Virus record (IMG/VR): IMGVR_UViG_3300036770_006954
Location: 96,001-160,000 of that record
Length of the DNA stretch: 64,000 bases
Source of the DNA: a virus
Direction: 5' to 3' (one strand)
The translations under genes were made by a program, and so were the position numbers. The number at the start of each line of letters is the position of its first letter. Positions within the stretch are counted from its first letter, which is position 1. The notes beneath the pieces are model-generated. The model searched no databases. It saw only the letters and a program-made list of their open reading frames with translations, and was not told the DNA's origin. Shown piece after piece: positions 109 to 47,016 of the stretch.

Positions 109-704
109 GAATTGCAATAGAAATTAATGGTGTTTTAAGAGATACTGTAAAGAAAATCGAACAAGTTTATGAAAAGTTTTATGTTGAGAATATTCTCAAT
201 GAAAAAAGAGATTTTAAATACGAGATTCTTTCACCAATAACTTCATTGAGATTGCAAGACCATCTAAAGTTTAAAGACGATGATGAACTTTATGATTTTC
301 TTTATACAGAACACTGTATGGAAATTTTTGGACATGCACCGTCAACTGAATATAGTAGCTTTATAGATTTAAATGATTTTTATGTAGATATGAGAGACAA
401 TCACGATATCCTACTTATTTCGGATGAAATCGGTAAATCAAAACCGGCTACATTATTTTTCCTTTCAAAGTTCGGTTGTCAGATAGAAAAAATTGTTTTT
501 TATAATCAGTTTACATTGCAAACAGTTTGGAATGAATTTGACCTTTTACTTACAGCAAATCCCGACTTATTATTAAATCATCCTACAGATAAAAAAATTA
601 TTAAGTATAATACAAGTTATAACGATAATATAACGGACTTTACGAATATTGATAACATTAAACAACTTAAAAATTTAATAGAAAATGATACCAATTTGGA
701 ATGA
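105..704 (+). CDS. HAD-fold 5'(3')-deoxyribonucleotidase-like protein, degenerate motif I
   Basis: N-terminal RIAIEINGVLRD resembles IxxDxDGVLxD but has E/N in place of D/D. Confidence 0.5.
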   Translation: MRIAIEINGVLRDTVKKIEQVYEKFYVENILNEKRDFKYEILSPITSLRLQDHLKFKDDDELYDFLYTEHCMEIFGHAPSTEYSSFIDLNDFYVDMRDNHDILLISDEIGKSKPATLFFLSKFGCQIEKIVFYNQFTLQTVWNEFDLLLTANPDLLLNHPTDKKIIKYNTSYNDNITDFTNIDNIKQLKNLIENDTNLE

Positions 705-33901: not shown

Positions 33902-34309
33902 GGGGGTGACCGGTATTGATTGGCAGAGTTAGTCATACGGGGCATGCGGTGAGATGTTTCCTATCACCTAAATCTATGGATGCAAAAATCAAACGGCGAA
34001 ACTTTCGCAAAACTCGAGGCTGTGGGTCTTCTCGCAGCTGAGGAAGTTACTGTAGCCTAAGGCTATATTAACAATGGGTCGATGGACATATAACCTTGAA
34101 ACAGAAGTCCCTACGGTGTGGTTTCTACCTTAAAAGGAATGGAGGTCATGTTTGGTGTTCTACCGATTTGAGTGAACACCCCACAGTTGTTGGTGACGAT
34201 GGTAAAATAGAAACCAAATAGTTCGGAGGGTGTGAAAAACCCTGACCTAAGCATGTAGTCCTTTATGGGTAAACTGAGCAAGACGCGGGTTCGATTCCCG
34301 CCACCTCCA
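33902..34309 (+). ncRNA. ssrA: tmRNA; predicted tag (A)GETFAKLEAVGLLAAEEVTVA
   Basis: GGGGGTG/CACCTCC-A acceptor with G3:U, T-arm GCGGGTTCGATTCCCGC, tag ORF 33995-34060. Confidence 0.93.
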
Positions 34310-34328
34310 CTAATTTTGTTGGTTCGAA

Positions 34329-36619: not shown

Positions 36620-36695
36620 GTCGAAGTAGCTCAGTGGTAGAGCAGCTTTCTTAATTGAAGGTGTGACGCGATAGGTTCGATTCCTGCCTTCGGCT
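36620..36695 (+). tRNA. atypical tRNA-like RNA (8-nt loop CTTAATTG)
   Basis: GTCGAAG/CTTCGGC acceptor, normal D arm, weak T stem. Confidence 0.6.
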
Positions 36696-36725
36696 CTTAA
36701 TTACTCTAAAGACTATTTATAAGAC

Positions 36726-43732: not shown

Positions 43733-43743
43733 TAATAAGTTTG

Positions 43744-43815
43744 CTCCTCGGGGGAATTACGATATCCCGACCTAACGATTAACAGTCGTTCGCTCTACCT
43801 CTGAGCTACCGAGGA
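43744..43815 (-). tRNA. tRNA-Asn(GTT), non-canonical T-loop
   Basis: Cloverleaf, loop CTGTTAA, T-loop ATCGTAA. Confidence 0.88.
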
Positions 43816-44095: not shown

Positions 44096-44201
44096 AAGTC
44101 AAGACAGGAATCGAACCTATTTTACCGCGTACATAGCCTAACACTAAAAGTTCGTTTGACTACCTCTTTAACCTACGATTACGAGCCACTCGCTCTTGAC
44201 T
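44096..44201 (-). ncRNA. tRNA-like RNA, AGTCA family
   Basis: AGTCAAG/CTTGACT acceptor, ATAGG-TTCGATT-CCTGT T arm, non-tRNA core. Confidence 0.65.
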
Positions 44202-44276: not shown

Positions 44277-44361
44277 TAGTCAGGACAGGATTCGAACCTG
44301 TAACTTTCGTAGATACCTTTCTGGCTCTCCCTACTGCGTATTCCTTTTTCGCCACCTGACT
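44277..44361 (-). ncRNA. tRNA-like RNA, AGTCA family, no anticodon loop
   Basis: AGTCAGG/CCTGACT, D arm, ACAGG-TTCGAAT-CCTGT. Confidence 0.7.
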
Positions 44362-44642: not shown

Positions 44643-44732
44643 TAGTCAGGACAGGACTCGAACCTGTACGAATGTTCCTTTCCCCGCAGACATAAAGTAC
44701 AACGGTGCGCCTACCAATTACGCCACCTGACT
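44643..44732 (-). ncRNA. tRNA-like RNA, AGTCA family
   Basis: AGTCAGG/CCTGACT, D arm, ACAGG-TTCGAGT-CCTGT, oversized anticodon-position loop. Confidence 0.7.
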
Positions 44733-44946: not shown

Positions 44947-45044
44947 TGGTGTGAGCGGGATTCGAACCACGCGGCACAGTCTTTTTCACGGACTTGCTCT
45001 ACCATGGGAGTATCATATGAGTACTCCACCTGAGCTATCACACC
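44947..45044 (-). tRNA. tRNA-Phe(GAA)-like with hairpin inserted in D-loop
   Basis: GGTGTGA/TCACACC acceptor; GGAGTA...TACTCC inside the D loop. Confidence 0.7.
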
Positions 45045-45946: not shown

Positions 45947-45992
45947 GTTATGTTGGTAAATTATAGAAAACCGAATCTATAATGTCAAATTG

Positions 45993-46139: not shown

Positions 46140-46245
46140 AAGTCAGTACAGGTACTGCCCCTGTTGCTTGGTCTTTTGCTTAACAGAGTATTATCAATGA
46201 CACTCTGTGAACCTCACCCACGAGTTACTTTTACTCTAACTGACT
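46140..46245 (-). ncRNA. tRNA-like RNA, AGTCA family, T-loop GGCAGTA
   Basis: AGTCAGT/ACTGACT acceptor, ACAGG/CCTGT T stem. Confidence 0.6.
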
Positions 46246-46248
46246 TTG

Positions 46249-46321
46249 TGACCCCACCGAGATTTGAACTCGGAACTCCCATGTTAAAAGCATGGTACTC
46301 TAGCCGTTGAGTTATGAGGTC
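46249..46321 (-). tRNA. tRNA-Lys(TTT)
   Basis: Cloverleaf, loop CTTTTAA. Confidence 0.93.
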
Positions 46322-46328
46322 TTTTTAT

Positions 46329-46604
46329 TAACAAAGAATAACCAGGATTCTGTTTTTAATCTGTCATTAGTCTATTGGCCCCACCTTACCCGACCAGCTC
46401 ACCGTCATGGGTTGTTTTGGGTTGAATCCTCGGTGGTTCAACCGATATAAGGTTGTGGACTTATAACTGACCATTATAAGTTTGTTACCTTATATCTCCC
46501 ACCTTAAGCTGCGATTTCCTGAGTTTCCTCTATGTTCAACATTTCACACTGTTCAGTGACAATGAACACCTGATTTTATTGAACAAAGCGACAGAACTTT
46601 GTTA
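46329..46604 (-). ncRNA. rnpB: RNase P RNA, reduced (~276 nt)
   Basis: GAGGAAACTCAGGA (CR-I), TAGACTAATGAC (CR-IV), AACAGAATCCTGGTTA (CR-V); P1 AACAAAG/CTTTGTT; P2 TCTGTCG/TGACAGA; P3 present. Confidence 0.85.
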
Positions 46605-46605
46605 A

Positions 46606-47016
46606 CTATTCCAAATCCAACATCTGGCGATGCGTGATGTTTTTATTAACCTTGATTTCCTTTTTTCGATTCATCAGTTTTCTAACGGTCCACCAATCTT
46701 TCGATAGAAAAACCACATAACCTACAAGTTTTCCCGAGGCATATGGCATTCGATACTCATCCAGGACAGTAATTTGATAAGGAAAAAGATAACCCGATAT
46801 TTTTTCTTCAATCATGATTTTATAGAAAACTACTTTATCGGGACCCATCCGTTTGAAATAAACATCAGGTTTTTCGTGTTTATTGAAATATTCAGTGATA
46901 AGACCGTCTTTGATTATCAACTTGGAATCCCCATCTAAAAAAGAGTAGAATTCAGCAAATCCATGTACAGTAAGAACGATAATAACAAATAAAAGAGTAA
47001 TAAGAATTATTGTCAT
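46606..47016 (-). CDS. membrane-anchored hypothetical protein
   Basis: N-terminal TM helix. Confidence 0.55.
   Translation of the reverse strand: MTIILITLLFVIIVLTVHGFAEFYSFLDGDSKLIIKDGLITEYFNKHEKPDVYFKRMGPDKVVFYKIMIEEKISGYLFPYQITVLDEYRMPYASGKLVGYVVFLSKDWWTVRKLMNRKKEIKVNKNITHRQMLDLE

Follow-up and report, generated by a model that had tools for sequence, protein, structure and literature searches.

The minus strand of a 64,000-nt stretch of phage DNA (hereafter the window, positions 96,001 to 160,000 of IMG/VR record IMGVR_UViG_3300036770_006954) carries a 280-nt RNA gene, running from 46606 to 46327, that on the evidence of its sequence is a miniaturized RNase P RNA, descended from bacterial type A, in the genome of a T4-like phage. 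Only two ribozymes are universal, and RNase P RNA, which trims newly made tRNAs, is one of them. The first-pass annotation had seen at this locus an RNase P RNA of the phage with the hallmarks of the catalytic domain (C-domain) and an apparently missing specificity domain, and both the alignment to the full Rfam model and the covariation across a newly assembled family bear this out. The ends of the gene are set by the pairing of P1, which moves the boundaries slightly outward from the 46329-46604 (about 276 nt, same strand) originally given. The source is a real phage, since the window encodes a T4-type Gp23 major capsid protein (9e-74), a Gp20 portal (1e-76) and a T4-type large terminase. 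We consider it probable that the RNA is a catalytic-domain-only ribozyme that acts in trans and works with the RnpA protein of the host on the pre-tRNAs of the phage.

Anatomy of the phage RNA

The Rfam search that had been suggested as a check returned a match to the bacterial class A model, RF00010, which aligns to the RNA from end to end (model positions 1-367, window 46323-46606) with 34.5 bits and an E-value of 4e-9 in a permissive scan of 701 nt, and which is both its best and its sole significant Rfam match. This score lies below the RF00010 gathering threshold of 100 bits, so Rfam-based annotation overlooks the gene, and RNase P is absent from gathering-level Rfam scans of the window and of the whole 171.6-kb record. 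Against R1, the family covariance model described below, the same RNA scores 156.7 bits (E-value 8e-39, model positions 1-172), and the z-score of its minimum free energy is −4.4. It is a genuine RNase P RNA homolog, far above chance.

The RF00010 alignment places P1-P3, CR-I, the P4 5' strand, P5, P7, J5/15 and P15-P17, followed by J18/2, P2', CR-V and P1', while the model positions for P8-P14, which include CR-II and CR-III, and for P18 are deleted. CR-II and CR-III had not been found on first reading either, and the specificity domain (S-domain), whose T-loop modules in these two regions read the tRNA elbow, is indeed not present in canonical or intact form. The catalytic domain, by contrast, is intact, as the window RNA retains P1-P7 and P15-P17, the P4 and P6 pseudoknots, CR-I, CR-IV, CR-V, the bulged U and the GGU of L15. 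Its elements are as follows.

46327-46606, minus strand: whole mini RNase P RNA gene, from the RF00010 match and the P1 pairing (R1 core 156.7 bits)
46597-46606, minus strand: P1 5' strand GUUAACAAAG, pairing over 10 bp with CUUUGUUAAU at 46327-46336
46590-46596, minus strand: P2 5' strand UUCUGUC, pairing with GACAGA at 46360-46365 (window pairing read by eye)
46531-46587, minus strand: P3, expanded and two-tiered, about 57 nt, folding alone at −16.1 kcal/mol
46517-46530, minus strand: CR-I, consisting of J3/4 GAGGAAA and the P4 5' strand AAC(U)CAGGA with its bulged U (from the RF00010 consensus alignment)
46513-46516, minus strand: P5 5' strand AAUC, pairing with GAUU at 46425-46428 (covariation)
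46507-46511, minus strand: P6 5' strand CAGCU, forming a pseudoknot with L17 AGCUG at 46395-46399 (covariation, unfitted)
46499-46503, minus strand: P7 5' strand GGUGG, pairing with CCACC at 46432-46436 (covariation)
46444-46496, minus strand: hairpin of the S-domain stub, with 10 bp, a 6x6 internal loop, 7 bp and a 7-nt loop
46437-46443, minus strand: 7-nt 3' strand GGUUGAA of the stub internal loop, opposite GA at 46497-46498
46380-46424, minus strand: J5/15 CAA, P15 CCC/GGG, P16 ACCC/GGGU, P17 GAC/GUC and the L15 3' strand AAGGU
46366-46379, minus strand: J15/2, the equivalent of J18/2 (..AAUAGACUAAU), aligned to the RF00010 consensus uAGAugAAUG
46340-46359, minus strand: CR-V, consisting of J2/4 (..ACAGAA) and the P4 3' strand UCCUGGUU

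P4 pairs as AAC(U)CAGGA/UCCUGGUU, with both strands as quoted in the first-pass annotation, and the L15 3' strand AAGGU contains the GGU motif. P18 is missing outright, with a single nucleotide at the place of 23 RF00010 model positions. The expanded P3 is an insertion specific to the window phage, because at this position the closest relatives (loci L238, L242, L235, L182 and L189) carry a tetraloop on a stem of 3 bp; the insertion is not repeated elsewhere in the phage genome.

A family of phage loci and its covariation

When IMG/VR was scanned for exact occurrences of the two P4 strand motifs, 193 loci emerged, among which both motifs occurred 133-219 nt apart at 15 distinct loci. R1 is a model of the core, 172 positions bounded by and including the two strands of P4, with P1-P3 handled by script; it separates true members (90-163 bits) from chance single-motif loci (at most 28 bits). 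Because the initial members had been picked by their P4 sequence, IMG/VR was rescanned with six P4 positions set to N, and the additional loci from this relaxed scan were all confirmed by R1 at 44-157 bits. The R1 family comprises 58 loci across IMG/VR, a published 484-kb phage genome and one MAG contig. The published genome (GenBank LR756508, an uncultured huge phage) carries a member of 64 bits that was not picked by motif; its P4 reads AGC(U)CUAGA/UCUAGGCU, and here too a tRNA lies shortly downstream. Members are about 185-290 nt long where measured in full, with cores of 146-234 nt.

BLAST searches with the RNA and the 12 kb around it against 50,697 phage records gave no match, the family being too divergent for sequence search. 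Among cultured phages, Microcystis phage Mel-JY01 and Flavobacterium phage immuto are the closest in their capsid protein; R1 detected no member in either, and no cultured carrier has therefore been identified here. A prokaryote scan for the two motifs, covering one genome for each of 185,579 species and confined to the P4 sequence of the window RNA with a gap of 115-145 nt, produced one match. It lies in an archaeal MAG, on a contig of 3.1 kb that carries six same-strand tRNAs and is most simply explained as a mis-binned phage fragment.

In a first, model-guided alignment of 18 members, 94.2% of the cells pair, compared with 26-44% when the 3' partners are slid, and 22 pairs change on both sides. 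The enlarged alignment of 56 distinct sequences gives 92.0% against 26-43%, with 422 cells changed on both sides and a covariation score of 0.54 versus 0.16 for shuffles (0 of 500 shuffles reach 0.54). The freed P4 positions provide a separate measure. All three pairs are standard in each of the 52 distinct cores, in 15 pair combinations, where chance would give about 5% per sequence. P4 is 100% paired across the family, with three covarying pairs.

The remaining helices behave in the same manner. P5 is 98-100% paired and all four of its pairs change on both sides; P7 is 91-92% paired, with such changes in 4-5 pairs; P15 (97-100%), P16 (84-90%) and P17 (97-100%) likewise change on both sides. 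P6, a pseudoknot that was left out of the covariance model and is hence unfitted, is 89% paired in the 18-member alignment (A4) and 77% on A5, and shows compensatory changes such as GGAACU/AGUUCC and CCGCUU/AAGCGG. Outside the core, P1 (10-17 bp) and P2 (6-8 bp) are built from unrelated yet complementary sequences in most members; both covary fully, P2 for instance as CCCUACG/UGUAGGG and GAGUAUAG/UUAUACUC. While the helices vary in this way, the unpaired core is conserved (GAGGAAA, the bulged U, CAA, GGU, AGA..AAUG and ACAGAA); J5/15 is CAA in 54 of 59 rows and the L15 GGU is found in essentially all.

The sub-threshold Rfam score, 34.5 against 100 bits, could be taken to mean that the RNA is a decaying, non-functional relic of a captured host rnpB that suffered an internal deletion. 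We regard this as extremely improbable and effectively refuted by the covariation, with compensatory changes in every helix across 56 distinct sequences. The unpaired core nucleotides are strictly conserved, as is the position within tRNA arrays, which also speaks against decay.

Some members depart from the common plan. The P4 bulge, otherwise an invariant U, is an A at L126:1974-2127 on the plus strand (GAGGAAACACAGG; 120.6 bits). Two tandem copies of the core lie 4 nt apart on the minus strand of L217 (3218-3377 and 3382-3523; 89 and 44.5 bits), of which the second may be a diverged duplicate. An extra hairpin occurs in J2/4, between the P2 3' strand and ACAGAA, at L127:11060-11100 (plus strand) and L170:~655-690 (minus strand), and another lies between the P7 and P5 3' strands in L073 and L176.

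At the position of the S-domain, the window RNA has a 5-bp P7, an asymmetric internal loop and one variable hairpin. The first-pass annotation had described two plain hairpins here. The first of these (GATATAAGGT/ACCTTATATC, 46444-46496) is real and sits where every member has its variable hairpin, whose size runs from 3 bp with GAAA (L018) to more than 100 nt (L166). The second (GGTTGAA/TTCAACC) is spurious. RNAfold predicts it for the window sequence alone, and it was rejected because it is unconserved, close relatives having ATAATTA or GTTATTA at that place, and because it competes with covarying P7 and P5; its supposed 3' arm consists of the P7 3' strand, the P5 3' strand and J5/15.

What is conserved instead is the internal loop. 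Its 5' side is GA in 46 of 56 sequences and its 3' side is exactly 7 nt long in 51 of 56; within these 51 strands, position 7 is A in 50 and position 3 is U in 34. The resulting U-N-N-N-A spacing would fit a T-loop-like motif, and the 2 x 7-nt loop beside P7 may be a one-T-loop remnant that still touches tRNA. A kink-turn reading of the same loop was rejected, because in most members the long strand has no G-A dinucleotide. None of the aligned family members has a P18.

Genomic setting and proposed mode of action

The nearest capsid proteins, at 41-45% identity, are those of LR756508, Microcystis phage Mel-JY01 and the Flavobacterium "immuto" phages; Bacteroidota or Cyanobacteria are our best guesses for the host. 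The window contains 27 tRNAs and a tmRNA at Rfam gathering thresholds, and 12 tRNAs lie on the strand of the mini RNase P RNA within 3 kb of its gene. The features adjoining it, together with other phage genes observed in the window, are listed here.

46248-46321, minus strand: tRNA-Lys(UUU), 5 nt downstream of the P1 3' end (ARAGORN and Rfam)
46606-47016, minus strand: upstream ORF of 136 aa with no family match, the last base of its TAG stop being also the first base of P1
53732-57012 and 27614-29638, plus strand: carbamoyltransferase genes and ClpB-like chaperone gene, respectively

The 136-aa ORF is not a conserved neighbor, as in L182, L238 and L242 the RNA follows a homolog of the next ORF upstream, and a PHROGs search gave no match for the flanking ORFs. 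The carbamoyltransferase genes are two adjacent, phage-encoded genes of the NodU/CmcH type (phrog_1601, 1.8e-104 and 1.8e-81), and the ClpB-like protein, also phage-encoded, is a double AAA+ chaperone.

Association with tRNAs extends across the family. In the 53 members with a tRNA within 3 kb, all of these tRNAs, a median of six, are on the strand of the RNA. At 24 of the 58 loci a same-strand tRNA begins 14-24 nt past the P4 3' strand, a gap made up of the P1 3' strand and a spacer of 3-7 nt, and a tRNA ends within 120 nt upstream in 18 of 58. Since the tRNAs share its strand and lie close, the mini RNase P RNA is very probably co-transcribed with them. In members with a tRNA at short range downstream, RNase P cutting would free the 3' end of the RNA. 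A promoter and terminator scan near the gene yielded nothing above the shuffled expectation and no convincing promoter directly upstream. A perfect sigma-70 consensus promoter (TTGACA-17-TATAAT) was observed within the array between tRNA-Val and tRNA-Met, at 45960-45988 on the minus strand.

In the mechanism we propose, the mini RNase P RNA would be transcribed together with the tRNA array, and its 3' end would be freed by RNase P cleavage at the 5' end of the tRNA-Lys 5 nt downstream. The RNA would then assemble with the RnpA protein of the host and act in trans, raising the capacity for 5'-leader removal from phage pre-tRNAs and tmRNA during infection. Substrates would be read through the acceptor stem, the 5' leader (by RnpA) and the 3' end (by L15), and not through the tRNA elbow. 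Because its own 3' end would be cut by RNase P at the adjoining tRNA, maturation would be self-reinforcing.

Host RnpA is proposed as the partner because the phage record encodes none. The absence of rnpA noted on first reading of the window extends to the whole 171.6-kb record, which has no PF00825 match at E<=1; the record is about 57% complete by CheckV, and the remainder of the genome could hold an rnpA-like gene. Recruitment of the host protein is plausible.

Further support for a functional catalytic domain comes from E. coli. Mao et al. 2018 (PMC5839562) report that the E. coli C-domain alone is catalytic and that, whether or not the C5 protein is present, it needs P6-type pairing to cleave efficiently. 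Against the proposed mechanism stands their result that C-domain-only constructs are much less efficient in vitro than the full-size RNA. The same paper describes the P18 loop as docking on P8 in the S-domain, with P18 adding nothing once the S-domain has been removed (PMC5839562). In the phage family P6 is under selection and P18 has been lost along with the S-domain, just as would be expected if the C-domain worked as an enzyme by itself.

The L15 GGU pairs with the 3'-CCA of tRNA in type A enzymes. Only 2 of the 27 window tRNAs encode CCA, so the motif would be usable only after CCA addition; a CCA-adding enzyme (PF01743) was not found in the 171.6-kb record. Like the lack of a convincing promoter directly upstream, this counts against the proposed mechanism. 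Read by eye, nearly all 27 tRNAs have C at position 74, and 16 of them continue CAA.

The C-domain is the RnpA-binding part of RNase P RNA, which raises the alternative that the phage RNA is a sponge or hijacker, itself an inefficient enzyme, that captures the host RNase P protein and so either starves host tRNA maturation or redirects the protein. An RNA that binds RnpA by its C-domain, comes from a record without rnpA and has lost the S-domain needed for efficient tRNA binding would agree with such a role. Conserved core nucleotides overlap the RnpA-binding surface, and sequence conservation alone therefore cannot separate catalysis from protein binding. We nonetheless judge capture of RnpA to be an unlikely purpose, as the bulged U, the L15 GGU, J5/15 CAA and P6 are conserved family-wide without a known protein-binding role, and as the phage itself needs RNase P activity for its 27 tRNAs.

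The tight, conserved spacing described above, with a tRNA 14-24 nt past P4 at 24 of the 58 loci and, for the window RNA, 5 nt beyond P1, could instead reflect a structured 5' leader that cleaves in cis only the next tRNA in the same transcript, much as in engineered, tethered RNase P RNA-tRNA conjugates. This too seems improbable. At 34 of the 58 loci there is no tRNA at that distance, and some of the nearest tRNAs are upstream. Moreover, a P1 of 10-17 bp puts the 3' end of the RNA at the far end of the helix, from where, on geometric grounds, a tether of 3-7 nt probably cannot reach the active site at P4. There is also one ribozyme per array of 6-27 tRNAs, which argues for action in trans.

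Several unusual tRNAs and tRNA-like elements were observed in the window. ARAGORN reads a tRNA with a 4-base anticodon, taat, at 36620-36696 on the plus strand (Rfam 35.3 bits). A 98-nt Rfam tRNA match of 41.4 bits at 44947-45044 (minus strand), possibly with an intron or insert, is uncalled by ARAGORN, as is the tmRNA at 33902-34312 on the plus strand (RF00023, full model, 84.6 bits); L049, another carrier of a mini RNase P RNA, also has a tmRNA. The tRNA-Asn at 43743-43815 (minus strand) has a non-canonical T-loop (GATATCGTAAT region). Four tRNA-like elements of 85-106 nt on the minus strand (44096-44201, 44277-44361, 44643-44732 and 46140-46245), here called AGTCA elements, have in common the acceptor stem AGUCA(G/A) and the T-stem A(C/U)AGG/CCUGU. 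In loci L017, L085 and L127, ARAGORN calls some copies built on this chassis as class II tRNA-Leu.

The first-pass annotation had proposed an enzyme of relaxed specificity that evolved for such neighbors with odd T- and D-loops. An RNase P without an S-domain would not read the elbow, and odd T-loops do occur, in the AGTCA element at 46140-46245 (GGCAGUA) and in the tRNA-Asn. This adaptation is nevertheless unsupported and appears very unlikely to us, because nearly every tRNA in the window has a canonical elbow and because loss of the S-domain is a trait of the entire family. The D-loop GG is present in 27 of 27 window tRNAs and a GTTC(R)A-type T-loop in 26 of 27 (24 by regular expression, the remainder after two misses were read by eye), and the T-loop is canonical in three of the four AGTCA elements. 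The stub is common to all 58 loci, whereas the AGTCA acceptor/T-arm chassis was found in 3 of 19 other member loci checked (L017, three copies; L085, five; L127, one), and most of the 58 loci are without AGTCA-like elements within the stretches examined. The reading we favor remains that of a trans-acting, C-domain-only ribozyme for phage pre-tRNAs.

Relation to other RNase P RNAs and implications

The phage RNA shares with type A RNase P RNA (RF00010, of which E. coli M1 RNA from rnpB is the example) P1-P5, the bulged U in P4, P6, J5/15, P15-P16-P17, the internal L15 with GGU, J18/2, CR-I, CR-IV and CR-V. The P6 pseudoknot, P15-P16-P17 and the internal, GGU-containing L15 are features of type A and not of type B. 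In contrast to the type A RNAs of about 350-400 nt, the window RNA has 280 nt (family about 185-290 nt), P8-P14, CR-II/III and P18 are gone, and the gene is phage-encoded inside a tRNA array rather than cellular. P4 of the window RNA carries three compensatory changes relative to P4 of E. coli M1 RNA.

A second point of comparison is archaeal type T of the Thermoproteaceae (RF02357), reportedly the subject of a 2010 paper by Lai et al. The two are alike in combining a conventional C-domain with loss of most of the S-domain, and type T, whose lack of an S-domain the first-pass annotation had remarked on, was also overlooked by existing covariance models. Type T shows that in nature RNase P can manage with a minimal S-domain (Chan et al. 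2012, PMC3579882; PMC13462272), for which 2026 modeling proposes a single T-loop (PMC13462272), and the 7-nt internal-loop strand of the phage RNA might, by analogy, play a similar part. Type T has a 3-bp P2, a 2-nt linker between P5 and P15 and a shortened P15 (PMC3579882), and it works with Pop5, Rpp30, Rpp29 and L7Ae (PMC3579882, PMC13462272). The phage RNA, in contrast, has a P2 of 6-8 bp, a 3-nt CAA linker, bacterial L15, P16 and P17, a P6, and a presumed partner in bacterial RnpA. It lacks the archaeal type T signatures, and its best match within the clan is bacterial class A. Judged by these signatures, the two lineages are a case of independent, convergent reduction.

The closest artificial counterparts are the Eco CP RPR constructs, which Mao et al. 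2018 (PMC5839562) describe as type A C-domains without the S-domain. Their activity needs P6-type pairing and not P18 (PMC5839562), which matches what the phage RNA has kept and lost, but the constructs are laboratory truncations of reduced efficiency, whereas the phage RNA is natural and selected. P7 and the conserved internal-loop module of the phage RNA may compensate for the lost efficiency.

Large phages are known for tRNA arrays and tmRNA (Al-Shayeb et al. 2020, PMC7162821), and the mini RNase P RNA occupies the same neighborhood and follows the same logic of supplying translation parts. Neither that paper nor the jumbo-phage reviews of 2021 and 2026 speak of RNase P. A wider search, mostly of non-subscription full text and covering 2024 RNase P reviews, the 2020 huge-phage paper, the jumbo-phage reviews and 2026 RNase P papers, found no published phage- or virus-encoded RNase P RNA. 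The balance of the evidence tips toward the fullest version of our reading, namely that this would be the first virus-encoded kind of RNase P ribozyme and, among natural RNase P RNAs of bacterial type, the first to work as a C-domain alone. It would use host RnpA, take charge of 5' maturation for the tRNA array of the phage and receive its own 3' end when RNase P cuts at the adjoining tRNA. It would add a tRNA-processing ribozyme to the translation RNAs already known from phages.

As the entire family escapes Rfam-based annotation, the annotation of phage genomes is incomplete in this respect, and at least one of the genomes concerned is large and already published. The family would also offer experimenters dozens of natural minimal scaffolds, with cores of 146-234 nt. 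If the proposed function is correct, a natural and widespread bacterial-type enzyme without an S-domain would show the minimal RNA for tRNA 5' maturation in vivo and would stand as an independent parallel to archaeal type T. Large phages would then supply a tRNA-processing catalyst besides tRNAs and tmRNA, which would point to tRNA maturation as a bottleneck or a battleground during infection.
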